From a virus (Duplodnaviria > Caudoviricetes), in IMG/VR virus record IMGVR_UViG_3300049140_000186, positions 9,783 through 73,782 of that record: a stretch of 64,000 nt of DNA; one strand, 5' to 3'. The notes under the pieces were generated by a model that saw only the letters and a list, made by a program, of their open reading frames with translations, ran no database searches and was not told where the DNA came from. Every line of letters starts with the position of its first letter. Within the stretch, counting starts at the first letter, position 1. Both the position numbers and the translations under genes were made by a program. Shown here piece after piece: positions 20,498 to 61,339 of the stretch.

Positions 20498-20515
20498 AGC
20501 AAGGGAGCTACCCAC

Positions 20516-21339: not shown

Positions 21340-21366
21340 TCAACTGGACAACTTGTCCACGTGAAA

Positions 21367-21397: not shown

Positions 21398-21399
21398 CT

Positions 21400-22386: not shown

Positions 22387-22416
22387 GTTAGACACTCTTT
22401 TTGCCTCGGTTAGACA
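22387..22416. other. Integrase arm-type direct repeats of prophage B
   Basis: GTTAGACA at 22387 and 22409, overlapping the int stop codon, 45 bp from the tRNA 5' end. Confidence 0.5.
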
Positions 22417-23470
22417 AAACTCGTTCCCGTTTCGAGCCGGCTTGTATCACATTTGCCATGTCGATCAATACCCCGGACACGTCCGCGCTCGAAGAATAAT
22501 GCGCCGCCATCTGCGCCGTCTCTTGGCCGAGATAGTCCTTGATCTGATCGAGCGAATAGCCGAGGCCGCGTAGCTCGGCCGCCACTGAGTGGCGCAGGCC
22601 GTGCATGGTCAACCCTTGGTCGGCCAGCTTGCGAGCGACGCACTTCGCGAAATACTTCCTGATCGATGCGGTGAAGCCCATCTCGGTCCATGGCTTCTTT
22701 GCCGAATTCAGGCAGAGCAACGTGACGTCGACATCGGCGACCGGAACGGCATCGAGGTATTCGTCGAGGATCGCCTTCAACTCCCCCAGCACCGGCAGCT
22801 TCATGATCTTGCCGGTCTTGCCGGTTCGAAAGCTGATGTAACCGTGTCGATACGCCATTCGGGGCAGCTTGAGTATGTCGCCGCGGCGAATGCCAAGGAA
22901 GCGTGCCAGGGCCAGCGGCACCTTCAGATGCAGCGGCGCCGCCGCTAGCACATTGGCCCTCTCTGCGGCCGTCCAGGGCCGGTTTTCTTTGCGCCGGTCG
23001 GCGGCGATCTTGGCCTTCTCCAGCTCGAGGCACGGATTGGAATCGACGAGCTCATATTCCTTGCCGTGCCTGAACGCGGATGACAGCATCGCCATCATGT
23101 GATTGGTGAAGGCGCCGCGCTTTTTCTTCACCGTCTTGTCGCGCAACTTGGCCATGAAGCCTCCGGTCATCAGCACGAGCGGCGTGCCTGCAATCGGCTT
23201 CAGATGGTCCATATACTGGTGATAATCGGCGCGGGTGCGCGGTGCGAGATCGGTGAATTTGGGCGACTTCTTGTAGCTTTCGAGCAACCCGCCCAGCGTG
23301 CCGGCCAGCGCCTGCTTCGGCGCATGCAGCTTGTCGAGCCGGTCGATCTCGGCGGCAAGTGCGGTGCCGGTCAATGTCGCGTCGATCGCGGTACCGGACT
23401 TGCGGTGATAGGCGCGCTGGTTCCCGTAGCGGTCCGTGTAGCGCTTAATTCCCTTCACCGTCACCCTCAT
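22388..23470 (-). CDS. int: Tyrosine recombinase / phage integrase
   Basis: GIRRGDIL (R), TGKTG (K), HGLRH (HxxR), LGQ...AAHY (Y). Confidence 0.93.
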   Translation of the reverse strand: MRVTVKGIKRYTDRYGNQRAYHRKSGTAIDATLTGTALAAEIDRLDKLHAPKQALAGTLGGLLESYKKSPKFTDLAPRTRADYHQYMDHLKPIAGTPLVLMTGGFMAKLRDKTVKKKRGAFTNHMMAMLSSAFRHGKEYELVDSNPCLELEKAKIAADRRKENRPWTAAERANVLAAAPLHLKVPLALARFLGIRRGDILKLPRMAYRHGYISFRTGKTGKIMKLPVLGELKAILDEYLDAVPVADVDVTLLCLNSAKKPWTEMGFTASIRKYFAKCVARKLADQGLTMHGLRHSVAAELRGLGYSLDQIKDYLGQETAQMAAHYSSSADVSGVLIDMANVIQAGSKRERVLSNRGKKSV

Positions 23471-47795: not shown

Positions 47796-48266
47796 ATGCC
47801 TCCCCTTCAGACGACTATCCCGACTTCCATGGCTGCCGGGGCCGTTGGCCGCCGACAGAATATGGAGGAGTGGAACGGCCTCACCGGTCTGGCGGAAGAT
47901 ACCGTCGCCAACCCGATCGGCTTTGCCCAGCCCGTCATGCGCGGAACCGCAGGCGAGCAGGTCAAGAAGTACGCCGCTGCCGGAAACTTCCGCGGCATCA
48001 CCGAAGCCGATGTCACCATCGGCGCTGACACTTATCCCGAGGGCTACAACGTCCCCGTGATGGAAAGCGGCGTGATCTGGGCGCTCGCCGGCGGCGCGTG
48101 CACGGCCGGTGGCCTTGTTTACTGGATCGCTGCCTCTGGCAAATACACCAGCACGGTCGGCACAAACCTGCTGATCCCGAACGCCGAGTTCGACAGCGCT
48201 GCCGCTGCCGATGGCGATCTCGTGCTGATCCGCCTGCGTCGCATCCCTGCGGCTCCGGCCCCGTAA
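47796..48266 (+). CDS. Capsid cement/decoration protein
   Basis: IGFAQPV..G...FRGI...VMESG.IW; position before major capsid protein. Confidence 0.75.
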   Translation: MPPLQTTIPTSMAAGAVGRRQNMEEWNGLTGLAEDTVANPIGFAQPVMRGTAGEQVKKYAAAGNFRGITEADVTIGADTYPEGYNVPVMESGVIWALAGGACTAGGLVYWIAASGKYTSTVGTNLLIPNAEFDSAAAADGDLVLIRLRRIPAAPAP

Positions 48267-48322
48267 CCCCTCAACGACCGAACGCCGCGAGGCAGTCCAG
48301 TCCCTTAGAAGGAACCTTTTCC

Positions 48323-49327
48323 ATGCACTTCAACATCCTCGACGCGGATCCGGCGCTGGTCTTCAGCTTCGCGCGTCAGCAGAGCCATGTGCTCAATGCC
48401 CGCATTTACGAGATCGAGTATCCCGAAATGGATTACGCCGCTCTCGTGCCGATCAACCGGGATTATCCCGAATGGGCGTCGGGCGTCGACACCTTGATCG
48501 GCGACATCGTCGGTAAGGCCGAGTGGCAGTCCGGCTATGCCAAGGACATCCCGCTCGCCGACACCACGCTCGCCATGGTGTCGACCAGCTTCGACATGTA
48601 CGCGGTCGGCTATCAGTGGAATATCGAGGAGCTCGGCAAAGCCGCGTTCCAGGGTTTTCCGCTGACCAACCGACGCGCCGAGGCCGCGCGCCGTGCTTCC
48701 GAGGAGTTCCTCTGGAATAACGTGCTCACCGGCTCGACCACGAAGAAGTGGACCGGGCTGATCAACAGCTCCTACATCACCCCTGTGTCGGCTCCGAACG
48801 ACGGCACCGGTGCCACCACGGCTTGGGTGAACAACTTGGGCGTCGGTCAGAAGACGCCGGAGCAGATCGTCCGCGACATCAACATCATGATCATGGGGCC
48901 GATTGCGAACCCTGATCAGGTGATCACGAGCTCGCTTGCGGATACCCTTCTGCTGCCGTCGCTGGCCTACCGGTACATCGCCGGAACCCCCTACGGCGTC
49001 ACCAGCCCCGGCATGTCGATCCTGCAGTACGTCATGTCCAACAACGTCTACCGGCTGCGCACCGGCCGCGATCTCATGATCCGCGACCTGGCTGAACTGT
49101 CGCGTGCAACAACTGTTGGCATTGCCGGCGGCGGCCGCGGCATCGGCTACCGCAACAGCGTGGACGTGCTCGAGCTTCCGCTGCCGATGGCGTTCCGCTT
49201 CCTGCCTGTCTACCAGGACGGTCCGCTCAACTTCGTCGTGCCGGGCATCTCCCGTACCGGCCCGATCGACGTCAAGCGTCCGCTGTCGATGCGCTACCTC
49301 GACGGCATCACGCCTGTCCCGGCCTGA
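48323..49327 (+). CDS. Major capsid protein (DUF2184 family)
   Basis: IYEIEYPE, YQWNIEEL.KA...G.PL, TGLIN, GGRG..YRN...LELP.P; start ATG 48323 with RBS AAGGAA. Confidence 0.85.
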   Translation: MHFNILDADPALVFSFARQQSHVLNARIYEIEYPEMDYAALVPINRDYPEWASGVDTLIGDIVGKAEWQSGYAKDIPLADTTLAMVSTSFDMYAVGYQWNIEELGKAAFQGFPLTNRRAEAARRASEEFLWNNVLTGSTTKKWTGLINSSYITPVSAPNDGTGATTAWVNNLGVGQKTPEQIVRDINIMIMGPIANPDQVITSSLADTLLLPSLAYRYIAGTPYGVTSPGMSILQYVMSNNVYRLRTGRDLMIRDLAELSRATTVGIAGGGRGIGYRNSVDVLELPLPMAFRFLPVYQDGPLNFVVPGISRTGPIDVKRPLSMRYLDGITPVPA

Positions 49328-49710: not shown

Positions 49711-50181
49711 GTGGCCGCCTACGATCCGGTCACGCCTGCCGAATTCAAGGCAGCGAAACCGCAATTTGCTGCGGTTGATGATGCCGTGGTTCAGAGCTAT
49801 CTCGACATGGCCGCGCGCGTCGTCGACCAGTCGTGGACCGCTGGCGACTATAAGAACGCCATCATCGCTTTCGCCTGCCACCTGATGACGCTGGAAGGGC
49901 TCGGCACCGATGCCGCAAGCCAGTCGCATGCGTCCGGTGCAGCCGAATATGAGAGCATCAAGTCCGGCGTCCTGACGCTGACCCGGTTCCGTGCCGCTGC
50001 CGGCGCGACCACGCCCTACATGGACTGGCTGAATTCAACGCCTTGCGGGAAGTATTTCGTGTTCCTGCTGAGGCTCAATCGGGGCGGTCCGCGTGTCGCG
50101 ACCGTCTCCACTGCAATGCCGAGCGGCTACGCCAAGGATTGGTGCGGCCCGGCATATGGCTGGCCCGGGGTGTTTTACTGA
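49711..50181 (+). CDS. Head-tail connector (DUF4054-like)
   Basis: EFKAAKPQFA...A..FACHLMTL...LNSTPCGKYF. Confidence 0.75.
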   Translation: MAAYDPVTPAEFKAAKPQFAAVDDAVVQSYLDMAARVVDQSWTAGDYKNAIIAFACHLMTLEGLGTDAASQSHASGAAEYESIKSGVLTLTRFRAAAGATTPYMDWLNSTPCGKYFVFLLRLNRGGPRVATVSTAMPSGYAKDWCGPAYGWPGVFY

Positions 50182-50555
50182 TGGCCGGCCTTCTCGACAC
50201 GAATGCGCTGCAGGGCATCTTCGGCTCTGTCCTGTCGTCGATCTATGGCGACGGGCAGTTGATCCGCGTGACGATGGTGCGCCAGCCGGGCGGAAGCAGC
50301 ATCCCGGTCGAGCAGGCGCCCGTACCGATTAAAGTGCAGGTCGACGCCTGCACTGAAGCGATGCGCCAGCAGCCGGGCTACACCGATACCGATGTGCGCC
50401 TGCTGATCCTCCAGAGCGGCGTTGCGGGAGCGAAGCCGACAACCGACGACATCGTGATCGCGCAAGGCCAGCGCCGTAAGCTCTTCGGCATCACCGAAGA
50501 TCCGGCGAGGGCTTATTGGGAAATGCGCGGAATAAGGGATGCGACCGATGGCTGA
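50181..50555 (+). CDS. Head closure/completion protein
   Basis: Start moved to ATG 50181; DVRLLILQ...P.TDD.V...DPARAYWE. Confidence 0.65.
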   Translation: MAGLLDTNALQGIFGSVLSSIYGDGQLIRVTMVRQPGGSSIPVEQAPVPIKVQVDACTEAMRQQPGYTDTDVRLLILQSGVAGAKPTTDDIVIAQGQRRKLFGITEDPARAYWEMRGIRDATDG

Positions 50556-50720
50556 TCGCTGGTTCCGTGTCACCGCCGAGCGCTTCGACTGGATCATTCG
50601 TCCCGGCCTGATGAAGTCGTTTCGCAAGGGCCAGATCGCCTACGAGCCGACGGCCTGCGTCGAATATGGCCTGTCCATCGGTGCGATCGAGACCATCGCC
50701 AAGCCGAAGAACGCCAAGGA
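50548..50720 (+). pseudogene. Small virion gene running into the deletion junction
   Basis: MADRWFRVT...KPKNAK then sequence switches to tail-spike-like DNA. Confidence 0.5.
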
Positions 50721-51472
50721 ACGTGTTCAAGGTCCGAAAGACTGCGGGCGGCTACGAAAACAAAATCCAGTCAACGATTGTCGTCAGCGGGCAGGGGGGC
50801 AATGACGGAACCTATGCGTTCTGGACTGCCGCGCCAATTTCGACGGGCGGGAAACTGTACTGCACCGGCTATCGGACTAGCGGTCCCTACACCGTCACCG
50901 CACTGTTTGAAAGCAGCAACGGCGGATGGGATTGGACATTTACGGCCATCATTGCGTCGGACCCCACCAAAGCATTTTCGGAAGCCGCGATTGTCAAGTG
51001 TCTCAACGGCGATATGGTGGCAGTTATTCGAGAGGATAGCGGCGCTGGTCGCCCTCTCTACCTATCGCGGTCTGCCACTGGCGTTACATCGTGGACAACA
51101 CCCGCCCTATTGTCGGGAATCCAGGGAACGCAGCCGTGCCTTCTCCTCCTGCCGGACGGTGACATTCTCTTGCTGGTTGGACACAGGACGGGCGGCTCTG
51201 GACTGGATGTCTCAGGGGTGCTGAACGAGGCAGGGCTTGCCAACATAACTGGCATCGCATGCTGGCGTTCGACCAACAACGCGGCGTCGTGGACAAACCG
51301 GGTTATCCTCGCCCCCATGTGGTCAACAGACGGTGGGCAACCGATGGCGGTTAGTCTCGACGTTGGGAGAGTTGGCATGCTCTGCTATCTAGCGCCCGGC
51401 GCAACCAACGCTGATTATGGCGTGGAGCCAGGGATTTACTGGATCACGTTCAACGGCGACAACATCGTTTGA
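50720..51472 (+). pseudogene. 3' remnant of a BNR/Asp-box (sialidase-like) tail spike
   Basis: No credible own start; Asp-box-like SSNGGWDW, RSATGVTSW, RSTNNAASW; FSEAAIVK.LNGDMVAVIRE. Confidence 0.65.
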
Positions 51473-51481
51473 TCTTCTAGT

Positions 51482-51685
51482 TTATCGCCTGCGCAAGAGG
51501 TTAGCGCGCGGGGCCGGTTGATAGTTGTAGACGCGAGGCGCGTCCTTTTCGCCTTCTTCTTCGAGCTCTTCGTTGTCTTCTTCCCAATCGGCAGCATCAT
51601 CGAAAGTTCGCTGAGTGAGCAGGTAGCGCTCATACTCATCGTCGTTCATGTCGTTCAAAATGGCTGGGTCGATGGGTTTAGGCAC
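51482..51685 (-). CDS. Small acidic hypothetical protein
   Basis: 67 aa, RBS GGAGGAA. Confidence 0.5.
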   Translation of the reverse strand: MPKPIDPAILNDMNDDEYERYLLTQRTFDDAADWEEDNEELEEEGEKDAPRVYNYQPAPRANLLRRR

Positions 51686-51720
51686 GGTGCTTCCTCCGTA
51701 GGGTTGGGCGGGTGCGTTCT

Positions 51721-54700
51721 TTATGCAATCTTCCTCTGCTGGTGGTCGTGCATCTCATTCGCACTCGCCAGCTGCCGTGTTGCAGGCATCGCGGGGATTC
51801 CTTCCAGAACTCTATCAACGGCGATTGTGACGTAAGGATCTCCGTTGACGATGAGTTCGCTCAGTTTCGCTTCATCCCACTTTGGGATGCCGACATTGTC
51901 ATTGGTGATTGGGCGCCGGCTATAGGTATTCGGGAGGGCCACATCCTCGGTTCCCATATAGTGCAGCAGCCCCATCGCCTTTCTCCTGAGCGCTTTTGAC
52001 GGCGGTCTCATGTGCTCTTGCGTTAACATCCGGGAATAATGCTCCCTGTCAACGGGGTAGTGCAGGTCGACCGGATAATCATGCCGGCCAAAGTGTGAAC
52101 ACATCACCACTGGAATTCCCAGACCGGTCAGTTCCAGGCAGGATGTTCCATTCCAGAGAACAGCGAGATCAATCAACCCGGCGATCTCGTTGACGTTGTA
52201 ATCCGTGTGTCCCAGCACAATGACATTTTCAGGAAGGGACGATGAGATAAGGTCCTCAAGTCTTTCGGTGAGATCCAGTGCAATCTCTGGCCGGAGTTCA
52301 TGAGGGTGAGGTTTGATCAGCAGCAGAGTGTCGGTACCTGCGACGGACTCGATCGAGTGGTTCAGCCAATCGGTCATATCGATATGAGCCGGGCCGCCGT
52401 CATAAGGTACGGCAAGATCGCACGGAACTTTGCCCAAGCAGCAAACGACGCGACGGCCGACCTTGCGCGCCTCAAGAATTCTCTCGTGAGCAGGGGCCTG
52501 GATGTCGACGAGGCGGCGGTTGCGGTTTTCATTGATCATCAGATCGAACCGCCGATCGATCTCCTCCGATTTGCGATTGGCCCGATACCATTTCTCAAAG
52601 CGGGGACGGATAGCCAAAAATGGAGCGCGGCAAGTCTTGTGAAGGGTCATGTCGACCACGGCCATTGAGCCGGAATATTTGCTTCCAAGGTTCGAGTAAT
52701 AGTTTTCATACGCTACACTGGCCGAGACGTAGCGCAAATTCGGAAGGTCGCGGGACAGGGCGAAATCTCGGATTACCGAATAGGGACTGACGTGGCTGTT
52801 GCTGCCAATGAGGATAATCGGCTGGCTCGTCGATTTTGCCACGGCTTCGACTTCAAGGCACTTTCGCAGCATGTAGTCAGATGACCTAAGGAGGTGGTCA
52901 AACTGCTCCTTTATGACCGCATCATCCAGTGTGATCGTCGCACGGCGGAACTTGGTGGAAAGCCGCTCATAGATCCCCTGGTAAAAGTTCACGCCGCAAG
53001 CCTCGACCAACCTCGCTGGCCAGTCGACATGCCAGTCGAGTTCCACGTTACCGTCTGTTCTGTCTTGGATTGCGCAATTGAAAAGGCTGCCAGCCGGGCC
53101 AGAAATCCCTGGACTGTCCAGCACACCTTCGAGAAGCGAGCCTACCGCATAACCCTGGCGCTTCAGTTCGACGAGGATAGGGCCAACCAGGGCGAGAGTA
53201 TTGAAACAGTTGAGCGAGGCAAGAAGCGCGACCCCTGCGGGATCGCTCGGCTGGGGCATCGAATTGATGATCCGGCTGGTCTGGTCGAGAAACCTCAGGC
53301 GCTCCAGCTTGGTCTGCACTGCAACGCGGTTCTCCAGTTTGTCGTCGGGCACGACCGTCGTGTTGATACGATGGTAGGCCTCCATGAAGCTTGAGCGTTT
53401 CCACGCCAGCGACCCGGCCAACTTGTGTTTCAGCTGCGTGAGAGCCGGCTGCTCATTGGGAGTTGGCTCGAGGTCCACGTCGTGCGGCGATTGAGATGTG
53501 CGCAGTCGGAACTCACAAATTTCGACATCCGCCGGCGTCATAAGCGGCCACAGAACCCTAATTTCCTCCTCTTCCAAGATTCTGAGTCGGATGATCTGTG
53601 CAGCAATTATCGAGGTCAGGGAAGATTGTTTCAAGGCTTCTTTACGATAAGGCGCGTTGCCGGCGACAACGCTGATCGCTTCACGAATGCCCGATGCATC
53701 AGAGTTGACGACGTGGAATGCAAGATCTGGCAAACCAGCAGGAAGCCCGGGGATCCCCGCAAGGGAAGACCTCAATTGCTCAGCAATTCGGCTTCTGATG
53801 TTCTTGCGGGCTTCGGCGTCCCGCTCGACTTTGAACGGATGTTGGTTTGTTAGAAGGCCGAGCCTAATCAGTGTAAGGGGGCTAATTCCCTCCATCCCAT
53901 TCAGTATTTTGGCCGCCACCTCATACTGGAGACTGCCGAGCGCCAAGCGGAAGTAAGATCTGGCAAGGTTATGGTCGAGGATTGTTTTCATCCTGGAAAT
54001 TGGGACCTTCGGGAAGGAACTGATGGACCGACCGTTCAGATTCTTCAGGCCGACAACAAGCGTTTCGATAAAAGCTTTGCAGTCGCGTTTGGCGATATGC
54101 CTGCCGCGCGGCCCGTTAAACCAGTCGATGTAGAACTCAATGACCTGTTTTAGATCGTCATATCTGACCATGTCGCGGAAAAAGATGATCAGAGACGGGA
54201 AAATGCCGATGAACGCTCTCGCGGTCATCGCCTCAGCGGTTGCTTCCAAGCTTTGCCTCAAAGGCTCAGAGCGAATGAGGGTAGCCAGCATTGACCCGAA
54301 GGGGGAACTCCGCATTTCTTCGATGAACAGGGGCGAGATATCGTCCAGCGCGGCGACCGAGTTCTCGCCTTCCATGAAGGGGAGTTGGGTGGCTTCATCG
54401 ATCTTTCGCTGAAGCGCGGTGCCTCGGAAGAATGATGCAAATCGAGGCTGAGCAGAAAGATAAAGAAATGCGAGAGCGCCTTCCACGGATATGGGGGCTC
54501 TGGTCACGGGGCAGCGATAGTGCTGTCCAACTATATAAGTTGATGCGAACGAGTTCGCCGTGGGGTTTTCATTCGGACGGGCTGGAGTAAGACGCCAGAC
54601 TTTGAGGCAGAGTTCTGCTCGGTCATTGTCCGGTGCGGTCGGCGTGTCCTTGGCCCGCCGCCATCTACGATGACGCATCACGTGCAGATCGAGGTTAGTT

Positions 54701-54861
54701 GAAAGGTCGACGGGGGCGAAATAAGCCTCCCTTAAAATCCGATTTCGGATGTCCCGAACTACACCGACCTGGATGGCAGCCTTTAGCAAGGGCCTGAGTA
54801 CGCCGCTGTTCCTGTGGTAAATATCAACGACCGCCATGGCAAATTTCGATGTTCTCGACAT
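51721..54861 (-). CDS. Large capsular polysaccharide synthesis protein with KpsS/KpsC-like C-terminal domain (moron 1)
   Basis: LGKVPCD...LLIKPHPHE...WNGTSCLEL..LGIPVV..S; start moved to ATG 54861. Confidence 0.7.
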   Translation of the reverse strand: MSRTSKFAMAVVDIYHRNSGVLRPLLKAAIQVGVVRDIRNRILREAYFAPVDLSTNLDLHVMRHRRWRRAKDTPTAPDNDRAELCLKVWRLTPARPNENPTANSFASTYIVGQHYRCPVTRAPISVEGALAFLYLSAQPRFASFFRGTALQRKIDEATQLPFMEGENSVAALDDISPLFIEEMRSSPFGSMLATLIRSEPLRQSLEATAEAMTARAFIGIFPSLIIFFRDMVRYDDLKQVIEFYIDWFNGPRGRHIAKRDCKAFIETLVVGLKNLNGRSISSFPKVPISRMKTILDHNLARSYFRLALGSLQYEVAAKILNGMEGISPLTLIRLGLLTNQHPFKVERDAEARKNIRSRIAEQLRSSLAGIPGLPAGLPDLAFHVVNSDASGIREAISVVAGNAPYRKEALKQSSLTSIIAAQIIRLRILEEEEIRVLWPLMTPADVEICEFRLRTSQSPHDVDLEPTPNEQPALTQLKHKLAGSLAWKRSSFMEAYHRINTTVVPDDKLENRVAVQTKLERLRFLDQTSRIINSMPQPSDPAGVALLASLNCFNTLALVGPILVELKRQGYAVGSLLEGVLDSPGISGPAGSLFNCAIQDRTDGNVELDWHVDWPARLVEACGVNFYQGIYERLSTKFRRATITLDDAVIKEQFDHLLRSSDYMLRKCLEVEAVAKSTSQPIILIGSNSHVSPYSVIRDFALSRDLPNLRYVSASVAYENYYSNLGSKYSGSMAVVDMTLHKTCRAPFLAIRPRFEKWYRANRKSEEIDRRFDLMINENRNRRLVDIQAPAHERILEARKVGRRVVCCLGKVPCDLAVPYDGGPAHIDMTDWLNHSIESVAGTDTLLLIKPHPHELRPEIALDLTERLEDLISSSLPENVIVLGHTDYNVNEIAGLIDLAVLWNGTSCLELTGLGIPVVMCSHFGRHDYPVDLHYPVDREHYSRMLTQEHMRPPSKALRRKAMGLLHYMGTEDVALPNTYSRRPITNDNVGIPKWDEAKLSELIVNGDPYVTIAVDRVLEGIPAMPATRQLASANEMHDHQQRKIA

Positions 54862-55022
54862 GTGCTGTGCCTCGAATGTCAGCGTGAGTAGCCCCCAATG
54901 GAGACAGCCTTGGAGCCGCGCCAAGGTTATCCATGGAAGGGCGGCTCGGGGCTTACAAGACCGTCGAGCGATCAGTTCTTCCGTGACGTGGTTTCCTGAA
55001 CCGGCTTTCGCTGCGCCCTTTA

Positions 55023-55101
55023 GCTCCTCTCGCACAAGCTTTCTAAAAACTCAACGCTGAAAGGATCAGCCATGGACAAGACCGTTCCCGCCGGAGCGGC
55101 G
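55023..55101 (+). repeat. Endolysin leader repeat, copy 1 (79 bp, 76/79 identical to copy 3, includes first 10 codons)
   Basis: GCTCCTCTCGCACAAGCTTTCTAAAAACTCAACGCTGAAAGGATCAGCCATGGACAAGACCGTTCCCGCCGGAGCGGCG. Confidence 0.95.
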
Positions 55102-55293
55102 GAAAAGGCGCTGTTCGTCGCCGGCTGCATCGCGGCTTCTGGCTCGACCGACATTCGCATGTCAGAAGGCGTTTACCGAAGCATTGAGTCCGGAGCATCA
55201 AACCCTCCTGCGACATCCATCAACGCCAGCGCCGTCAATGTGGTTCAGGCCGACAACTTGGTGTCGTCCGGTATCACTGCGACTTATCCGTAG
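55072..55293 (+). pseudogene. Chimera: endolysin N-terminus (MDKTVPAGAA) fused to an unrelated 3' gene remnant, possibly a fibre/spike end
   Basis: First 10 aa identical to the 59221 endolysin, remainder unrelated and beta-rich. Confidence 0.7.
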
Positions 55294-55306
55294 GAGAAAA
55301 AATATC

Positions 55307-55528
55307 ATGCAGGAGAAAACGGTTTGGATCGGCGACACGCAGGTGAAGGTCGGCGATCGGCTGACGACGATCGACAGCATCCGAGTTGAGGTGGTCGCCA
55401 TCGATGATATGAGCGGCAAATTGCAGCTTATGTCGGTCGCTGAAGATGAAGGACTGAGAGCCGTCCAAAACGCGACTCTCGATCTCTTCAATCCAGCGCA
55501 ACGCATCGGCGCGGTAATCAGAGAATAA
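55307..55528 (+). CDS. Small hypothetical protein
   Basis: 73 aa, RBS AGGAGA overlapping the previous stop. Confidence 0.55.
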   Translation: MQEKTVWIGDTQVKVGDRLTTIDSIRVEVVAIDDMSGKLQLMSVAEDEGLRAVQNATLDLFNPAQRIGAVIRE

Positions 55529-55585
55529 CGACCCGCAGGGGATTTGGCGGCAGAGTTTTCAGTGTTTTACCCGATGAGCGCACGG

Positions 55586-57613
55586 TCAAAAGATTTCGAC
55601 TTGATCGGTTCCAAGGAACGGCTGGAATGAGGCGTCGTCGCGGAGCCGCTCGGCGAGATATTCGATTCCAAAACTCGTTAAGTGAAACTGATCCCAGAAC
55701 AGCGGTTTGCCGACATCGTCATCGAGCCAGAGCCGACAGACTTCTCCGGGGCAGAAGACCGGCTCGACGTCGATGTACGTGATCTGGTGCTTTTCGGCGA
55801 GCTTGCGGGCGGCGGCGCTGATCTTCTCATAGCTCCATGGAACCATCGATTTATCTGACTCCAGGACCTTCGTCTGAATTTCATCGCCCACGGCTGATCT
55901 ACGAACAAACACAGCCGGCGGGGCACGAAATACGGGCGTGACGCCGACCATATAGATCTGACCGAACCGCTCGCGTATAGGCGCGAGGCCTTTAGATACC
56001 GATGTCCACTCTTTGGCGCGATAGCGGAATGCAAGAACCACCGCCTCGATGTTGATAGCTGCCTTAGCTCGATCGAGCACATCGAGAATGCCAGAGAAAC
56101 AATGTCTTCGCGCCACCACCACGTCGGCGGGCACGCAACTGGATTGGTGGAGCATTAGGAAGTTGGTCTGTGGGAACGCTTGTTTAAGGCTGTGGAACGT
56201 ATCTCTTCCGACGCTATCGCCGATGATCAGGACGTTACGGTCAGATGCCTGCTGCGTCAGGCAGGCGACCAGCCGCTCCGGCGTGTTTCCTAAATCGTAG
56301 CTGCACGTCACGTCCTGATTTCCGCTGCCTTCGAGCGGTTGACTCTTGCCGTTGAAGTTTAGGTTGAAGTGTTCTTTGTAGAATTCGTCCTCGGCTTTCA
56401 GTGTAGCGAGGATTGCCCCATGCGGCCCAAAGACCGTCTCCAGCCGATAGATCGCCAAGGCTGGTACGAGCCCTGGGAGCGCAAGAATAATGCTTGCAGC
56501 GAGAGCTGTGGCGAAAAGGCCATAGGCGCCTCGTCGGGACGGCAAAACCGTTTTGCGCCGGATGGGGTTCTCAAGATAGCGCAACGACAGGAATGCGAGC
56601 CCCAGCCCGACGACAGCGCCTGCCAATTGCGGCAGAGGCGAGTATTCGTCGGTAACGATCGGAAATAAAAGCGGCACGAAAACTGCAATTGGCCAATGGA
56701 ATAGATACCATGCATAGGAGACCCGACCAACTTGGACGAATGGCTCCGATTTCAGCACATTGCTGATCATGTCTTTCCCGGATGTTCCAGCCCAAATTAT
56801 CAGCGCCGTTCCTAGGACGGGCACTACAGCGGTCGGTCCCGGGAAAGGAAGGCCTTCGTGATAACCGAGGACGGCAACCCCGATCATGAGAGCACCGATA
56901 TAGCGAGCCCAAACGGCGGCTCTGATATTCGCGCAGCCGGCGATGCCTACGGCAAGAAGACAGCCGACGAGCAGTTCCCAAAAGCGGGCAAGCGAGTTGT
57001 AGAATGCGTTGTTGGCGTCGTCAGCCATTATCAGGTAGGCGGCATAACCAAAGGAAACGGTCGCTATTGCGGCGAGAGCTGGGACCAGCTTGGTTGGAAC
57101 CTTCCGTTTTAGGACTATGAGGATCGCCGGAAAGACAATGTAGAACTGCTCCTCGATCGCCAGGGACCACATATGTAGGAGCGGCTTCGACAGAGCATCC
57201 CCATCGAAATAGTCAATTTGAGAGAAGAAGAACCAATTCGACGTTGCGGTGAGCACGCTCAGAAAGCTTTGGGAAAACTCCTCATAGTGAGCGGGATCGA
57301 GCAGGATAGTGGCCGCGGTCCACGTGACAACGAGCATCGCTAGCAGCGGCGGGGCAAGCCTGCGGATTCGGCGCTCATAAAAGCGGCCGTAGGTAAATGT
57401 TCCGGAGCTGATCTCTGAGACGATGATGGAGGTGATCAGGTAGCCGCTGATCACAAAGAAAACATCGACCCCTACAAAACCTCCACTCCATGTTGTGAGG
57501 CCCGCGTGGAAGAGAACGACCGGGACAATCGCGACTGTGCGCAAACCGTCGATCTCAGGCCTGTAAATAGGACGATTATCACTATCGTGACGTGCGTAGG
57601 TGTGAGTATCCAT
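55586..57613 (-). CDS. O-acyltransferase, acyltransferase-3 plus SGNH domain, OafA-like (moron 2)
   Basis: YRPEIDGLR, GVDVFFVISGYLIT, LLHMWSLAIEEQFY; SGNH IIGDS...DQFHL. Confidence 0.92.
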   Translation of the reverse strand: MDTHTYARHDSDNRPIYRPEIDGLRTVAIVPVVLFHAGLTTWSGGFVGVDVFFVISGYLITSIIVSEISSGTFTYGRFYERRIRRLAPPLLAMLVVTWTAATILLDPAHYEEFSQSFLSVLTATSNWFFFSQIDYFDGDALSKPLLHMWSLAIEEQFYIVFPAILIVLKRKVPTKLVPALAAIATVSFGYAAYLIMADDANNAFYNSLARFWELLVGCLLAVGIAGCANIRAAVWARYIGALMIGVAVLGYHEGLPFPGPTAVVPVLGTALIIWAGTSGKDMISNVLKSEPFVQVGRVSYAWYLFHWPIAVFVPLLFPIVTDEYSPLPQLAGAVVGLGLAFLSLRYLENPIRRKTVLPSRRGAYGLFATALAASIILALPGLVPALAIYRLETVFGPHGAILATLKAEDEFYKEHFNLNFNGKSQPLEGSGNQDVTCSYDLGNTPERLVACLTQQASDRNVLIIGDSVGRDTFHSLKQAFPQTNFLMLHQSSCVPADVVVARRHCFSGILDVLDRAKAAINIEAVVLAFRYRAKEWTSVSKGLAPIRERFGQIYMVGVTPVFRAPPAVFVRRSAVGDEIQTKVLESDKSMVPWSYEKISAAARKLAEKHQITYIDVEPVFCPGEVCRLWLDDDVGKPLFWDQFHLTSFGIEYLAERLRDDASFQPFLGTDQVEIF

Positions 57614-57744
57614 GCTCCCCCGAACAGGTCTGAAGGCGGCTTAAATCTAACTTGCGATCTCCAAGCTAATGAAATTCGGCCAGTTCCCGCGCTGACAAAT
57701 GAAATTCCTCCTGGACTGCCGCTGGTGCCCTCGCCCAACGCCAC

Positions 57745-57794
57745 CCTCTCGCACAAGCTTTCTGAAAACTCAACGCTGGAAGGATCAGCCATGG
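57745..57794 (+). repeat. Endolysin leader repeat, copy 2 (50 bp, 49/50 identical to copy 3, ends at ATGG)
   Basis: CCTCTCGCACAAGCTTTCTGAAAACTCAACGCTGGAAGGATCAGCCATGG. Confidence 0.95.
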
Positions 57795-57843
57795 CATGTT
57801 TCCGAGACAGATGGAGCCAAATGGATCAGGCGATCATCTATAA

Positions 57844-59007
57844 CTAATTCAATCGCATCTCGATGTACGTCGAGGGGTTCACCGGGTTGGCATTGTTGCG
57901 CTGGGTGAAATCGTAGACGCGACGGATCGTTTGCACCCGAGGGCGGGCGGCGAAGCTGTCAATAAGACCCAAAGCGTTGCGGTTGTAGCCCAGCCGCCAG
58001 GAGTTCAGCGCGGCATTCAGGGCTTGAGTGTACTCGCTAGCGATGTCGTCTGTGCGCCTGCGAGAAAGAGCCTTCCATGTCTCTTCGTCACCGTCCTCGC
58101 GCGCCTTTAGCAGCTCGGGGAATCGTTGCCAGCCGATAGGCTCGCAATGAACCAGGAACGTCGGATTCTTGCGAGCGAGAATTTGCGTATAAAGTTCGCC
58201 GGATATGGTCTCCACCTGCTCAATTGAATGATGCGAAAAGATGAGAGCCGAGGCGTCATCGGGGATCATCGAAATTTCGGGACTCAGATAATTGAAATGA
58301 TGGGCCGACAGGGGAAGTCCTTCGTGCTCCGCGATCATTTGCATCAATCCGACGCCGGCGTCTGTGTATTCCAGACCCCATAGCTTCTTGCCATGCACCC
58401 TGATGCCCATCTGAATACTAAGGTCAAATAGGTTCCAGCCGGGTCCCGCGCCCAACTCCACTACATGGGTAACCTTGCGCGAGAGCAATTCGACTGCCCG
58501 AAGCGGATCGAAGTTCGAAGCAGCGGTGTACCGGCCGCCCGCTACGGCCAGCCGGATGTTTGGAATGCCCTCAGCGTCCAACTCCAGCCCGCGATCACGG
58601 AGATAGGCGGTCGCCGGGGCTGAGGATACACGATTTTCTCCTTTGGCCCGATGGAGCGGCGGGCGCATTGAAGCAAGGACATGAGCGAGCGTCTCGCCCG
58701 CCTCGAATTTATTGCGGACTCCTGCGATGCGCTTGCCCCAATGGGCCTCGTAGCTCTCCTTGACGTGTTCTGCATCCGCTCCTGTTTTCGTGGCGGGGAT
58801 CACGGCGAGGAATGCCTTGTCTGATTGGGCGAGGCGCTTGGCTCGAATTTCCGCAGCCTTGTTTGCTGCCGCTGTGTTTTTTTTGGCTTGGGCCGCCTTT
58901 ATCTGCCGTTGCTTCTCCTGGGCTTTTGCTTGACGCCGCGCCTGCTGTTCCGCTTTCCGCAAATCCGGGAACATACGCAACACTGCGCGCCGAACCAAAT
59001 TCTTCAT
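57844..59007 (-). CDS. Class I SAM-dependent methyltransferase-like protein (moron 3)
   Basis: VVELGAGPG motif I, GLEYT, FSHHSIEQV; start 59007 or 59046. Confidence 0.7.
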   Translation of the reverse strand: MKNLVRRAVLRMFPDLRKAEQQARRQAKAQEKQRQIKAAQAKKNTAAANKAAEIRAKRLAQSDKAFLAVIPATKTGADAEHVKESYEAHWGKRIAGVRNKFEAGETLAHVLASMRPPLHRAKGENRVSSAPATAYLRDRGLELDAEGIPNIRLAVAGGRYTAASNFDPLRAVELLSRKVTHVVELGAGPGWNLFDLSIQMGIRVHGKKLWGLEYTDAGVGLMQMIAEHEGLPLSAHHFNYLSPEISMIPDDASALIFSHHSIEQVETISGELYTQILARKNPTFLVHCEPIGWQRFPELLKAREDGDEETWKALSRRRTDDIASEYTQALNAALNSWRLGYNRNALGLIDSFAARPRVQTIRRVYDFTQRNNANPVNPSTYIEMRLN

Positions 59008-59171
59008 CGGTGAAATCCCCTCCATTTCGCCGGCGACATTATGCAACTTGCACCAAGGCGCAATAGTTCTCTTCAGGCTTACCCTTGAGCGCTCTGTGTC
59101 TGGGTTAGCCCCGCCGCTCCGCCTGTCGGCGGGAGCGGCGAAAGCTTTCCCTCAGAAAACCACGTCACCAC

Positions 59172-59250
59172 GCTCCTCTCGCACAAGCTTTCTGAAAACT
59201 CAACGCAGGAAGGATCAGCCATGGACAAGACCGTTCCCGCCGGAGCGGCG
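59172..59250 (+). repeat. Endolysin leader repeat, copy 3 (attached to the intact endolysin)
   Basis: Same sequence as copies 1 and 2, continuing into the 280-aa ORF. Confidence 0.95.
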
Positions 59251-60063
59251 CTGCTGCTCGGCTTCATTTACGAGACCGAGACGAGCTGCAAGCCGCCGCA
59301 GTGCTATGAGTCGATCTACGCCAACAAACAAGGCAAGCTTCCGAAGCCGCTGACGAAGATGACGCTCGACGAGGTGATCGCCTCGCAGCGCCGCTGGTCG
59401 AAGAACCACGGATCGTCCGCAGCTGGGGCTCCGCAGTTCATGCGAAACACGCTGCTCGGCCTGATGGCGGAACTCGGCTTGTCCGGATCGCAAATCCTCG
59501 AGGGCGATCTGCAGGATCGGCTCGCCTATCACCTGCTCAAGCGCCGCGGTTGCGAGGCGTTCGTCGCCGGCAAGATCAGCCGCACCGAGTTCGGTAAGCG
59601 GCTGGCGCAAGAATGGGCTTCCTTTCCCGTCCTCGCTCCAACCAAGGGCGCGCACCGCAACGTGAAGCGCGGCCAGACCTACTACCTCGGCGACAAGCTC
59701 AACAAGCAGCTGGTCACCCCAGAGATGGTCGAGACGGTGCTTGACCGGGTGAAGGCGGTTGCGGCGGCGTCTGTGCAACCGGAGCCGAAAACAGAGCCGA
59801 TTCAGCAACCGGCGCCTGCCCCTGTTATCGTCGAGAAGCAGGTCATTGCCGATCCGGGCGAACTGGAGCAGCACCCGGCCAAGAGCAAGACCGTCTGGCA
59901 GTGGATCATCACGACCGTTCTCGTGCCGGTCCTCGCCGTGTTCCAGGACTGGCGCGTCCAACTCGCCATCGTCCTGATTATAGCGGCCTTCGCCGCCTAC
60001 GCGATCAAGCGCCGCGTCGACCTGTTCAAGGCCGTGAAGGCGCTCAAGAGCGAGCTGGGCTGA
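59221..60063 (+). CDS. Endolysin, lysozyme-like muramidase with C-terminal TM segment
   Basis: IYETE...MTLDEVIA.Q...SSAAGAPQFM.NTL...LAQEWASFP. Confidence 0.85.
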   Translation: MDKTVPAGAALLLGFIYETETSCKPPQCYESIYANKQGKLPKPLTKMTLDEVIASQRRWSKNHGSSAAGAPQFMRNTLLGLMAELGLSGSQILEGDLQDRLAYHLLKRRGCEAFVAGKISRTEFGKRLAQEWASFPVLAPTKGAHRNVKRGQTYYLGDKLNKQLVTPEMVETVLDRVKAVAAASVQPEPKTEPIQQPAPAPVIVEKQVIADPGELEQHPAKSKTVWQWIITTVLVPVLAVFQDWRVQLAIVLIIAAFAAYAIKRRVDLFKAVKALKSELG

Positions 60064-60209
60064 TGGGCGGGAACGACACTCGTTTCCTGGCCTGGGTGTT
60101 TCTGCGGGCAGCGCCCGGCCTCGCGTGGCGGATCGCGCTGTACTACTGGCCGGTGTCTCTGGCGATCGGCGCGGTGCTGATCTGGGGAGTGTTCCAATGT
60201 TTCCGCTGA
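60063..60209 (+). CDS. Small membrane protein (holin-like)
   Basis: 48 aa hydrophobic; ATG overlaps endolysin stop. Confidence 0.5.
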   Translation: MGGNDTRFLAWVFLRAAPGLAWRIALYYWPVSLAIGAVLIWGVFQCFR

Positions 60210-60469
60210 ACTGGTTTTCCGCCTGCGCTGGCGCGCTTGTCGCCACCGCCGCGACCTTCGGCGCCATGTCAGCCTGGACGGCGCTGGTGACCTTGCCTGC
60301 CGTCAAGGCGGAGACGCGCGCCATCGTCGAGGCCGAAGCCGCCAAGCGCACCGAAACCGCAATCAACGAGGTATCCTCCGATGCTGAAAAAGCTCGCTTC
60401 ATGCGCCGCTATTGCCGCGACCTTGGCCGGCTGTACGACTTCGAGCGCAATACATGCCGGGACGCCTGA
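60197..60469 (+). CDS. Inner-membrane spanin-like protein
   Basis: N-terminal TM, coiled coil, C-terminal Cys pair; overlapped by a lipoprotein ORF. Confidence 0.6.
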   Translation: MFPLNWFSACAGALVATAATFGAMSAWTALVTLPAVKAETRAIVEAEAAKRTETAINEVSSDAEKARFMRRYCRDLGRLYDFERNTCRDA

Positions 60470-60629
60470 CCTGGCGCGCGCCGCCCGCTCAATCGCCGGC
60501 ACATCACTGATCGGCGCGAAGGGCGCGACGCCGGCCGATCAGGACGCGATCGACGATACGGCGGCCGGGCTGTGCGGGGCGAGATCGTGGACGGCGACGG
60601 AATGCGCGCGACACGGGGCGGGCCGGTGA
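60381..60629 (+). CDS. Outer-membrane spanin-like lipoprotein
   Basis: MLKKLASCAAIAATLAGC lipobox, overlapping the previous gene in another frame (Rz/Rz1-like). Confidence 0.6.
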   Translation: MLKKLASCAAIAATLAGCTTSSAIHAGTPDLARAARSIAGTSLIGAKGATPADQDAIDDTAAGLCGARSWTATECARHGAGR

Positions 60630-61009
60630 GAGAAGCCAGCCTGAACGAAATCTACAAGCTGGTTGGCGAACTCACCAGCACTACGAAAGCGATCAACGAT
60701 AAAGTCGACGATCTCAAGAAGGACATGGGCGATTCCGAGGTGGCCAGCGCCACCAGCCGCGCCAATGTCCATCGCCGGCTTGACGAGGTGGTGCTACGGA
60801 CAACCCACCTCGAGACGGACATGCTGTCGGTCAAAAACAAGGTTGAAGGCGTGGAGGCCGTGACCGAAGACGTCATTTCGCTTCGCCAGCAGGCGCTCGG
60901 CGCCGGCACGCTCGGCCACTGGCTCATCAAGATTGGCATTACCGTCGTCGGCTTCGCCGGCTGGGCGATCGGGATCTATACCTATCTGACCGGCCGGCCA
61001 CCGCCCTGA
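60626..61009 (+). CDS. DUF1515-like coiled-coil membrane protein
   Basis: SRANVHRRLDE...GAGTLG...C-terminal TM; GTG start 60626. Confidence 0.6.
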   Translation: MREASLNEIYKLVGELTSTTKAINDKVDDLKKDMGDSEVASATSRANVHRRLDEVVLRTTHLETDMLSVKNKVEGVEAVTEDVISLRQQALGAGTLGHWLIKIGITVVGFAGWAIGIYTYLTGRPPP

Positions 61010-61069: not shown

Positions 61070-61312
61070 CAGCCGTCCAATGAAACATTGTTCGTCATTT
61101 ATTTTTTACGACTTGACGCTAATGCAGACAGGGGGGTGATATTTCAGTTGATTGAAGGGCTCTTGTTGTGAAGCAGGTAGATCATTCTGAAAAGTCCCAG
61201 ATCGCCTTTGACGTGTTGTTTCTCTTAGGGTCTTCCGGTCTGGTTAGTGGTTATTCGCCTGTACGACAGGTATTATCGCAGGAACCAAGTCCGCGATCAT
61301 TCCGCAAAATAG

Positions 61313-61339
61313 GCCCGCCAAGTCGGCGGGCTTTTTGCG
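61313..61339 (+). terminator. Rho-independent terminator
   Basis: GCCCGCC-AAGTC-GGCGGGC-TTTTT. Confidence 0.75.

Follow-up and report, generated by a model that had tools for sequence, protein, structure and literature searches.

Three antisense cassettes of predicted glycan-modifying enzymes, each closed by an endolysin leader, in a defective rhizobial prophage

Three intact genes for predicted glycan-modifying enzymes are arranged in succession in a tail-less, defective prophage of a soil rhizobial bacterium. All three are antisense to the phage genes around them, and each is followed by a copy of the leader of the phage endolysin gene. The array is located in a stretch of 64,000 nucleotides from the IMG/VR record IMGVR_UViG_3300049140_000186 (to be referred to as the window). 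The history that we favor, with moderate confidence, is serial capture of the units by unequal or illegitimate exchange beside the conserved leader, and we infer the order and the mechanism of the events. The features of the region, in window coordinates, are as follows.

50539–50706, plus strand: 5′ stub of about 56 codons from the gene after the Hc1-like head-closure gene (from head-module homology)
50707–50711, no strand: junction J0, the tail-module deletion joint; left-parent homology ends at 50706 and BNR-gene homology (locus L207) begins at 50712
50712–51472, plus strand: 3′ remnant of a BNR_2/sialidase-family gene, about 245 of about 370 codons, the last two-thirds (from homologs and DNA)
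51721–54864, minus strand: cassette gene 1 (p1104), intact; likely start M58 at 54864, giving 1047 residues
54939–55018, plus strand: 80-nt intergenic element with inverted-repeat ends (GGGCGGC...GCCGCGCCC), directly upstream of leader copy 1
55023–55101, plus strand: leader copy 1 and the first 10 endolysin codons (MDKTVPAGAA); junction J1 lies between 55101 and 55102
55102–55293, plus strand: 3′ remnant of a donor phage's last tail-module gene, joined in-frame to the endolysin stub (73-residue ORF, 55072–55293)
55307–55528, plus strand: small ORF, 73 residues, carried along with the tail-gene remnant (from homology to prophage L210)
55586–57613, minus strand: cassette gene 2, predicted AT3-SGNH O-acetyltransferase, 675 residues, intact (from Pfam and PHROG)
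57745–57794, plus strand: leader copy 2, which stops at ATGG; junction J2 is between 57794 and 57795
57844–59046, minus strand: cassette gene 3 (p400), predicted class I SAM-dependent methyltransferase, intact; likely start at 59007 or later
59172–59250, plus strand: leader copy 3, running on into the intact endolysin (from pattern match and repeat finder)
59221–60063, plus strand: endolysin, 280 residues (phrog_90 endolysin, 6.4e-32)
60381–61009, plus strand: rest of the lysis module, a phrog_19660 protein and a DUF1515 protein, syntenic 3′ of endolysin homologs

The leader copies and the assembly

A degenerate pattern for the 50-nt repeat finds three direct matches on the plus strand with no mismatches (55026–55075, 57745–57794 and 59175–59224), with none expected by chance (100 shuffles). 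With the repeat finder, copies 1 and 3 have 79 nt in common at 96% identity, including the first 10 endolysin codons, and copy 2 diverges directly after ATGG. The left edges of the three copies agree to within 3 nt. Three positions vary among the copies (55045, 55058 and 55060, in the coordinates of copy 1), and the longest exact identity between any two of them is 41 nt (55061–55101 and 59210–59250). Comparison of the window with itself by blastn found no further DNA repeats in the 64 kb. The three direct copies reported in a preliminary description of this sequence are thus real, and its coordinates for copies 1 (55023–55101) and 3 (59172–59250) as well as its breakpoints are correct. The endolysin coding sequence is retained for 30 nt in copy 1 and for 4 nt in copy 2, and only copy 3 reaches the intact gene. 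The leader of copy 2 is followed by an 18-codon ORF that overlaps the 3′ end of p400.

No promoter-like site was found in any leader copy by a consensus scan, and the promoter/terminator scan was at or below shuffle expectation. The sole hairpin in the leader copies is a weak one of 5 bp, on the minus strand of copy 1. Neither the leader nor the 80-nt element folds better as RNA than shuffled sequences do (z-scores of −1.4 to +0.6), and Rfam has no match within 54700–55300, the segment that includes leader copy 1 and the 80-nt element. The consensus scan also gave no convincing promoter or terminator sites at the cassette borders. A two-way terminator-like hairpin (61311–61333) closes the lysis module. 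The exact leader pattern is absent from the viral, genome and metagenome contig collections, and a megablast search with 50600–60100 gave no match among the GenBank phages.

The assembly was checked with Logan contigs, which are consistent with the array. Those from runs X1 and X2 cover all segments with even depth (20.1, 21.6 and 17.1 across the three units in X1) and span J0, J1 and J2. They break only inside the repeats, because k is 31. Runs X3 and X4 cover the region only partly, and a contig of X3, which comes from another study and has 8 mismatches in 481 nt, bridges 57447–57927, from the 5′ end of the AT3 gene through leader copy 2 to the 3′ end of p400. J2 is therefore present in a second study.

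It is extremely unlikely that the array is an artifact, with separate phages or strains of a soil metagenome falsely concatenated through their common leader. The record does consist of soil metagenome data, the Logan contigs do break at every repeat, and runs X1 and X2, which hold the region best, may be its source sample, so they do not count as independent support. A false join within the repeat, however, would connect the leader to the endolysin rather than to a tail gene's 3′ end. Contigs in two runs span the sequences at J1 and J2, which are unique, J2 was found in a diverged copy as well, the depth is even across the units, and the longest exact repeat of 41 nt is shorter than a read. 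Joints that skip a unit or close a circle between repeat copies are not seen in the contigs, in which rare forms would not be visible.

Cassette enzymes and tail-gene remnants

Measured against its homologs, each of the three cassette genes is full length. The first, p1104, has 375 relatives, many of which contain about 1300 residues, with an N-terminal Capsule_synth domain (PF05159), and adjoin pseudaminic-acid genes. The p1104 protein has no Pfam match, and hence no match to the Capsule_synth profile (PF05159/GT107). Its C-terminal domain is homologous to the C-terminal half of the 1300-residue proteins, outside the PF05159 domain that makes up their N-terminal half. The top PDB matches of the AF2 model (pLDDT 92) are GT-B glycosyltransferases. 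Among them are the KpsC β-Kdo transferases 6mgd and 6mgb, with a probability of 1.00 but TM-scores of only 0.25–0.48, which generic GT-B enzymes equal. A K-P-H-P-x-E motif is invariant in 32 sequences. The C-terminal 520 residues or so can be modeled as a predicted KpsC-like GT-B glycosyltransferase domain.

The second cassette gene matches PF01757 (1.1e-28, 100.7 bits with a cut-off of 31) and PF19040 (3.5e-22, 79.8 bits with a cut-off of 27). It also matches phrog_6705, 'O-antigen acetylase', over its full length (1.3e-128, positions 8–640 of 647). The predicted protein has an N-terminal Acyl_transf_3 membrane domain and a C-terminal SGNH domain, the arrangement of an AT3-SGNH enzyme of the OafA/Oac type.

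The third cassette gene, p400, matches no Pfam model. It has 19 relatives, one of which is named a class I SAM methyltransferase by NCBI, and an E-x-G-x-G-P-G motif, the glycine-rich SAM motif, is invariant in these relatives. The top PDB matches of its AF2 model (pLDDT 89) are all SAM methyltransferases, with a probability of 1.00. The Rossmann-like fold of the model and the motif point to a class I SAM-dependent methyltransferase. A 50% homolog is located in a KPS/pseudaminic-acid locus (L141). A 91% ortholog, on L140, has DNA in common with the window only as far as the stop codon at 57842.

The GC content falls from 0.63 to 0.54 in the cassette region. GC3 is 0.64–0.66 for the three cassette genes and 0.64–0.67 for all of 50719–59171, versus 0.73–0.84 for the capsid gene, the head-closure gene and the endolysin of the phage core. 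In base composition, the cassette genes therefore have the deviation that is characteristic of morons, and their antisense orientation implies independent transcription. As judged from their sequences, the three enzymes most likely modify a capsule or O-antigen of the lysogen that is of the nonulosonic-acid or Kdo type. We infer both their expression and this putative glycan target, the latter because homologs are located in KPS/pseudaminic-acid loci. Such lysogenic conversion would most likely block adsorption.

The plus-strand pieces ahead of cassette genes 1 and 2 are remnants of fiber-region genes. To the left of the array, the gene of the 5′ stub continues in relatives as a tail-terminator-like protein, which is followed by a full siphovirus tail module. 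In L147, for example, the tail terminator, major tail protein, tape measure protein and fibers come next. In the window, homology to ten head-module relatives ends at about 50706–50718, and GC3 in the frame of the stub changes from 0.83 to 0.38 past 50718. DNA homology to L206 and L207 begins at 50712–50720, which corresponds to codon 124 or so of the intact BNR gene. Head-module relatives have a tail module at the position of J0, and the prophage has lost this module entirely, which makes it defective.

The prophage adjoins another prophage at a tRNA-Gln, and the sole recombinase seen is a phage integrase (22388–23470). For prophage B, plain decay is a better account than a tail-stealing satellite, given its length of about 39 kb, its truncated tail-terminator gene and its close tailed relatives. 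The head-module relatives G001–G005 do not have this endolysin.

The BNR remnant has 17 homologs of 295–387 residues, at up to 73% identity and 100% query coverage, with precomputed PF13088 assignments, and the Atlas places 50712–51472 in BNR clusters at 0.96. The N-terminus of the listed ORF (50666–51472) is artificial. A full-length, six-bladed BNR/sialidase propeller of about 360–390 residues is not present, and the remnant is below Pfam detection. A word-index search for proteins longer than the remnant found none, and a later 'near' search gave the intact forms, which contain 360–387 residues and PF13088. The BNR gene is located directly 3′ of tail-fiber genes in three phages (L205, L206 and L207).

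The remnant in the second unit comes from a different tail gene. Its segment 55123–55290 is 44% identical to the C-terminal 57 residues of the last tail-module ORF (at most 413 residues) of prophage L210, which is located 3′ of the tape measure and distal tail proteins. The small ORF at 55307–55528 is 39% identical to a 76-residue ORF immediately after this tail gene in L210, and its composition is coding-like (GC1/2/3 of 0.62/0.35/0.66). The proposal that such remnants are derived from the fiber region holds for both units. On the other hand, the uniform layout of remnant, antisense glycan gene and leader that had been proposed for every unit is found in units 1 and 2 only. Unit 3 has the intact antisense gene and the closing leader but no remnant, as just 47 nt separate ATGG from the p400 stop codon.

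The leader in relatives and the history of the array

In Rhizobium phages, homologs of the endolysin bear the annotation lysozyme-like protein or endolysin, and 132 related loci were found. A tblastn search with the remnants and the cassette genes against 130 loci around these homologs gave nothing upstream of the endolysin, so those phages have only the lysis module in common with the prophage. Leader copy 1 lies within a conserved module that extends over about 135 nt and occurs in one small genus. Copies of the 80-nt element, 85–96% identical, are present in four of five genomes of one genus and in three of 401 genomes of the family sample, and genome G378 carries five of them. The summed contig depth at 54989, within the element, is about five times that of its surroundings in run X1. 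The BNR protein and the DNA of 55076–55600 are absent from the five genomes of the leader-bearing genus.

The order of antisense glycan gene, element and leader is seen with four different genes, in the window and in L179, L180 and L184. In L179, L182 and L195 the leader is duplicated: a first leader and a stub of at most 13 codons are followed by a small antisense ORF for a membrane protein, then by a second leader and its gene. Events of the same shape are thus found in these relatives and at J1 and J2, with all three breakpoints within about 40 nt after a leader ATG. The leader duplication in relatives, the 135-nt module and the loss of the tail module go beyond the preliminary description.

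As support, that description had named relatives with a lone moron between a full tail spike gene and an intact endolysin. A single antisense glycan gene before a lysis gene is found in two relatives. L206 has an antisense AT3 gene between the tail-fiber genes and the endolysin and holin. L179 has an antisense AT3-like gene followed by the element, the leader and the endolysin, and the genes adjoining on that side are bacterial rather than tail genes. No relative was found with the fiber and endolysin genes directly adjacent. L205 has p1104-like and p400-like genes after its fiber and BNR genes.

In the history that we favor, a single hot slot between the last tail-fiber genes and the lysis genes would have recombined repeatedly in a lineage of temperate rhizobiophages. 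This slot would house antisense glycan-modifying genes of lower GC content, and its right border would be the conserved leader of about 50 nt, at times preceded by the 80-nt element. Twice, a genome with the order glycan gene, leader and endolysin would have been joined, just inside the 5′ end of the endolysin (+30 and +4), to the fiber-region 3′ end of another genome with a different glycan gene. The joins would be unequal or illegitimate, possibly anchored by homology in the leader. Each event would have added one unit and one leader copy, and only the last leader would still drive the endolysin. A separate deletion (50707–50711) would have removed the tail module.

The endolysin stubs of 30 nt in copy 1 and 4 nt in copy 2 indicate that every cassette gene formerly preceded a leader and an endolysin start without any gene in between. 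Insertion of the AT3 unit into an existing p400–p1104 operon was rejected because of the leader with endolysin stub beside p1104 and the leader with ATGG beside AT3. The p1104-like and p400-like genes are adjacent in L205 and L180, however, so p1104 and p400 may have a common history, against a strict model of one gene per phage. The 'three related phages' of the preliminary description and the order of events are putative, because no near-identical donor or sister phage (none above about 70% DNA identity) and no exact leader match were found in the collections.

The array may also have arisen by collapse of three related prophages that were integrated head-to-tail at one attachment site. Large deletions, each from just inside the endolysin to the end of the next prophage's fiber region, would then have been combined with selection to keep the conversion genes. 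One such large internal deletion is already present (J0), the element adjoins another prophage at the tRNA-Gln, and all junctions spare the cassette genes. We nevertheless regard this history as unlikely. It needs two deletions of about 35–40 kb, both with their left ends within 30 nt of the endolysin start, and a similar breakpoint in the separate event of the relatives. Random deletion predicts no such clustering unless selection against extra endolysin copies is added, and there is no att, integrase or head-gene remnant between the units. Of the two mechanisms that the preliminary description had posed, the clustered breakpoints tend to favor capture next to the leader over collapse. The clustering may also reflect survivorship alone rather than leader-guided recombination, since long repeats are lost by looping out whereas short ones persist.

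As a third possibility, the leader may itself move as an active regulatory cassette, alone or together with the 80-nt element, in the manner of the PeSLs of T4-type phages. Circles of a gene and a leader, formed by recombination between leaders, would re-insert at any leader. The left edges of the three copies within 3 nt of each other are consistent with this, as are the duplicated leaders around an antisense ORF in relatives. In several genomes of one genus, the leader and the element also turn up next to unrelated genes, one case being a non-phage polysaccharide locus with IS transposases on its flanks, and PeSLs offer a precedent (PMC2839356). Insertion by homology, however, would leave units bounded by the leader alone. 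The units carry differing endolysin stubs (+30 and +4) and a fiber-gene remnant, which makes the joints illegitimate, and the leader has no promoter/terminator signature. Circle or skip joints are likewise missing from the contigs, though these would not display rare forms. Overall, we consider this mechanism very improbable.

In a broader proposal, in which we have little confidence, the leader of about 50 nt and its 80-nt companion would actively capture cassettes in temperate rhizobiophages, as a mobile regulatory module with a PeSL-like function. Recombination or nicking just after the ATG would repeatedly bring in antisense surface-glycan genes, some of them from phages and others from the capsule loci of bacteria. 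The products would be expandable, recombinase-free arrays and loop-out circles of a gene plus a leader.

The processes behind serial capture are already known (illegitimate recombination, moron acquisition and prophage decay), and the case concerns a single defective prophage in soil metagenomes. The array is a tidy example of how phages collect host-altering genes, and is not fundamentally new. Moron gain is ordinarily deduced just from the presence or absence of genes among phages. Here the scars are legible, with endolysin stubs on one side, fiber-region 3′ ends on the other and a common leader. They reveal the threefold extension of one slot, with breakpoints that cluster by a short conserved intergenic sequence. 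The array provides a concrete, testable model for the assembly of multi-enzyme surface-conversion sets by temperate phages. Rhizobial K-antigens are important for symbiosis and phage sensitivity. The region couples a phage-borne sialidase-like tail protein with putative modifiers of a nonulosonic-acid capsule, which suggests a receptor/counter-receptor pairing in rhizobia.

Comparison with known systems

Morons, described in lambdoid and other temperate phages by Hendrix and colleagues, are extra genes between neighbors of related phages, with deviant composition and independent transcription. The cassette genes resemble them in their GC3 (about 0.65, compared to about 0.8 for the core), their antisense orientation and their plausible expression in the lysogen. 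They differ in that three are located in successive copies of one slot, each with the leader of the downstream gene and stubs of the flanking genes. Because the units keep these, the insertion history can be read.

Temperate phages also carry seroconversion modules, such as the oac O-acetyltransferase of Sf6, gtrABC of P22 and SfX, and the multi-gene sets of Pseudomonas D3 and Salmonella epsilon15. As in these, glycan-modifying enzymes of a prophage, including an AT3 O-acetyltransferase, are located by receptor-binding or lysis genes, and the phage's own receptor is probably altered. In the present case, the putative target is of the capsule type with nonulosonic acid or Kdo, and the enzymes come from separate slots rather than one operon.

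The PeSLs of T4-type phages, which are lytic myoviruses, combine a strong sigma-70 promoter with a terminator stem-loop (Arbiol et al. 2010, PMC2839356; Comeau et al. 2014, PMC4122927). Both systems have short conserved intergenic motifs around non-essential genes in a plastic region, and PeSL recombination shuffles, adds and removes genes. In comparison, the prophage belongs to a temperate phage, and its joints are illegitimate rather than purely homologous. In its leader copies neither a promoter nor a stable hairpin was detected, and hence no PeSL-type pair of sigma-70-like promoter and terminator stem-loop.

The array had been called integron-like, and tandem single-gene units parted by short repeats are indeed common to both. 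This is an analogy only, as no integron integrase, attI or attC-like fold is seen and the only recombinase is the phage integrase. Moreover, each repeat here is a copy of a resident gene's leader, the breakpoints are not constant, and the cassette genes are encoded on the strand opposite the repeats.

Homology-facilitated illegitimate recombination (de Vries and Wackernagel) was reportedly described for bacterial transformation. There, too, a short conserved sequence serves as the anchor on one side, and the joint on the other side forms without homology. The coinciding left edges and variable right breakpoints of the leader copies fit such a process, which is known from bacterial transformation and would here have operated in phage–phage exchange.

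Three copies of the endolysin leader and their joints

The 50-nt pattern that was first noticed as a triple repeat is found in exact matches on the plus strand at 55026-55075, 57745-57794 and 59175-59224 (0 in 100 shuffles). Three positions vary among these leader copies, and the longest exact identity for any pair is 41 nt. With a repeat finder, copies 1 and 3 extend to 79 nt (55023-55101 and 59172-59250, 96% identical), and copy 2 diverges immediately past the ATGG. A blastn comparison of the window with itself gives no further repeats besides the leader copies. In an alignment with the flanks, the left edges of the three copies agree to within 3 nt, and the right edges are located at +30 (copy 1) and +4 (copy 2) from the ATG, as had been claimed in the preliminary description.

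Two soil-metagenome runs contain 99% of the sampled words from 54000-60000, and as the possible source of the record they do not provide independent support. The Logan contigs of both runs cover every segment at even depth (20.1, 21.6, 17.1 and 15.2 in run X1), with contig breaks confined to the repeats, as k=31 assembly requires. The unique junctions at ~50709, 55101/55102 and 57794/57795 are each crossed by contigs of both runs. A third run, which belongs to another study, yields a contig that bridges 57447-57927 (the 5′ end of the AT3 gene, copy 2, and the 3′ end of the p400 gene), with 8 mismatches in 481 nt. If the shared leader had caused a false join, it would run into an endolysin rather than into the 3′ end of a tail gene, and such an assembly artefact is therefore unlikely.

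Antisense genes and plus-strand remnants

The three units carry the following antisense genes.

Antisense genes of the three units
51721-54864, minus strand: p1104; likely start M58; 375 relatives
55586-57613, minus strand: AT3 and SGNH O-acetyltransferase (PF01757, PF19040); full-length match to phrog_6705, 'O-antigen acetylase'
57844-59046, minus strand: p400, class I SAM methyltransferase family; rare, 19 proteins

Each gene is full length relative to its homologues, and the label of 'glycan-modifying' proposed for them holds for all three, based on their families, structure models and homologue context. Acetyltransferases related to the AT3 protein are present in phages of Pseudomonas, Salmonella and others. 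Many relatives of p1104 are ~1300 aa long and combine an N-terminal PF05159 domain with a C-terminal region of ~520 aa that p1104 shares, and their genes are often directly downstream of NeuB/PseI-type genes. The model of the p1104 C-terminal domain (pLDDT 92) finds its matches, at low TM-scores, among GT-B glycosyltransferases, KpsC beta-Kdo transferases included. For p400, one of the 19 family members is labelled class I SAM methyltransferase by a source, and the top PDB matches of the structure model (with alignment, pLDDT 89) are all SAM methyltransferases. A 50% homologue of p400 belongs to a capsule locus that also encodes KpsD-like export, a Capsule_synth protein of 1305 aa and the complete pseudaminic-acid pathway. 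As this homologue context points to nonulosonic-acid/Kdo polymers, the putative target is a capsule or O-antigen containing nonulosonic acid or Kdo.

Each unit had also been thought to contain the remnant of a receptor-binding gene. A remnant is present in units 1 and 2, which begin with the 3′ ends of fibre-region genes, but not in unit 3, which has none and only 47 nt between the ATGG and the p400 stop codon. The DNA identity of a 91% p400 orthologue to the window also ends at this stop codon. The orthologue's JGI soil contig (L140, 7-2787) has a 49% paralogue in tandem after it, so that two members of this methyltransferase family are paired in a different arrangement.

The unit 1 remnant (50712-51472) aligns along its full extent, at 73% identity, with the C-terminal two-thirds of PF13088 (BNR_2, sialidase family) proteins of 360-387 aa. 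Atlas likewise indicated the BNR/sialidase family, and the DNA homology to two intact BNR genes starts at their codon ~124. An intact BNR gene is located directly after the tail-fibre genes in three phage contexts (L205, L206 and L207). In L205, a P2-like prophage of Chelativorans sp. ZYF759 (10001-14720), a p1104-like gene (712 aa) and a p400-like gene (348 aa), both antisense, come next. This prophage repeats the window's three families in matching order and orientation, and has neither the AT3 unit nor the leader copies. The glycosyltransferase and methyltransferase genes adjoin here without AT3, which suggests that the two enzymes function together. In L206, a podovirus-type contig, the genes after the fibre region are an antisense AT3 gene, then a GH108 endolysin and a holin.

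In unit 2, residues encoded by 55123-55290 match the last 57 residues of the final tail-module ORF of prophage L210, and 55307-55528 matches the small ORF after it. In L210 this final ORF comes after the genes for the tape measure and distal tail proteins and, by its position, may encode a receptor-binding protein. Genome G002, a complete head-module relative, has a 695-aa antisense ORF of unknown family right after a beta-helix tail spike (L157, 4944-7031), which resembles a further case of such a filled slot.

The missing tail module of element B

The window corresponds to bases 9783-73782 of an IMG/VR provirus record. This record of 73,782 bases contains two prophages, elements A and B.

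Landmarks of the two prophages
2744-15659: element A podovirus virion module (tail protein, ejection proteins, tail spike)
17948: element A, its own endolysin
22269-22342: complete tRNA-Gln, between the two prophages
22388-23470: element B integrase, its first gene
48098-49327: element B capsid
50043-50555: element B Hc1-like head-closure protein

Element B also encodes a DnaB-like helicase, large terminase, portal and DUF2213 protein. Its head module is matched gene for gene in ten related viral contigs, with synteny extending into the ORF at 50539 for its first ~56 codons. In L147, a complete relative, the equivalent of this gene continues, and tail genes come after it (tail terminator, major tail protein, tape measure protein, distal tail protein and fibres). 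The window loses homology to the head-module relatives at 50706, an unrelated gene provides the match from 50712 onward, and GC3 in the old frame drops from 0.83 to 0.38. The deletion joint (50707-50711) fuses a truncated tail-terminator-like gene to the truncated BNR gene. This switch in homology, the drop in GC3 and the tail genes of L147 indicate that element B is, by its sequence, a defective prophage that has lost the entire tail module, a loss omitted from the preliminary description. Integrase, replication, packaging, head and lysis genes are present in element B (22388-61340), and the tail module is absent.

Near its right end, prophage A has short stretches (20515-20575, 21364-21398 and 22114-22183) that recur with 81-100% identity in L179, L183 and L207, downstream of lysis modules or a BNR gene. 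Shared att or prophage-end sequences are the probable explanation.

The leader in related genomes and a proposed origin of the array

Endolysin homologues are common in rhizobial prophages (up to 62% identity), and what they share with the window is limited to the ribosome-binding site and ~30 bases at the start of the coding sequence. The leader proper is found only in one small genus (4 of 5 representative genomes; 3 of 401 family-sample genomes), where it is often preceded, as at window copy 1, by an intergenic 80-nt element with inverted repeats at its ends (GGGCGGC...GCCGCGCCC).

Copies of the 80-nt element and gene orders with the leader (glycan genes on the minus strand)
Window, 54939-55018: element before leader copy 1; p1104, element, leader
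L179, 10021-10101: AT3-like gene, element, leader, ahead of endolysin; adjoins bacterial genes
L180, 9885-9964: p1104-like and p400-like genes, element, leader; bacterial polysaccharide locus flanked by IS transposases
L181, 9967-10046: element
L183, 1562-1641: element
L184: relative of the 61349-64000 gene, element, leader
L191, L193, L194: element

The order of minus-strand glycan gene, element and leader is thus seen with four different genes. The element is 85-97% conserved and limited to one small genus. Genome G378 contains at least 5 copies, and the putative source metagenome also has multiple copies. It also occurs without the leader, and often lies just upstream of minus-strand polysaccharide genes. 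Rfam has no match for it, and its folding is not significant; a MITE/REP-like repeat and a regulatory site are both possible identities. The ORF at 61349-64000 (minus strand, open-ended, 883+ aa), after the lysis module, matches phrog_36377 and has a methyltransferase-like C-terminus; its relatives are found inside a tail-fibre region (L206, 4320-6593) and beside the 80-nt element (L184, 8823-9692).

L179, L182 and L195 carry the leader twice, on either side of a short antisense ORF that encodes a membrane protein of ~40 aa, with a stub of up to 13 codons after the first leader copy. A leader copy with a 5′ stub and an antisense insert is therefore a recurrent pattern, and all three breakpoints (the two in the window and that of the relatives' event) are within about 40 nt past the leader ATG. 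The ~40-aa ORF (L179 10140-10300, L195 1540-1720, L182 6270-6450) has one hydrophobic helix and a basic tail, is located just upstream of a lysis gene, and could encode a small toxin or a protein of the holin/antiholin type. The window contains no homologue of this ORF.

The copy-1 and copy-2 leaders, on the upstream side of the cassette genes, still bear 30 or 4 nt of endolysin, and because of this each cassette gene must formerly have been directly in front of an endolysin. To the right of the joints at 50707-50711 and 55101/55102 are the 3′ ends of fibre-region genes. The simplest account is two unequal, illegitimate exchanges between genomes with different genes in the same slot, each of which would add 'fibre remnant, glycan gene, leader', followed by a separate internal deletion that would take out the tail genes. 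Recombination tied to the leader is favoured over random deletion in tandem prophages, since the left edges coincide and the breakpoints are packed just after the leader. The same breakpoint picture could also be produced by survivorship, only short direct repeats being stable, and the collapse of tandem prophages is a less favoured but plausible alternative. An active cassette mechanism like that of PeSL (PMC2839356) is possible though less likely; scans of the leader found neither a promoter nor a terminator, there is no Rfam family for it and its folding is not significant, and homology accounts for the joints only in part.

Taken one by one, the components are familiar: morons, seroconversion enzymes, illegitimate recombination and prophage decay. 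The unusual aspect is the legible record, with one slot present three times and stubs on both sides, and the tie of this slot to a conserved leader that is itself duplicated in relatives.
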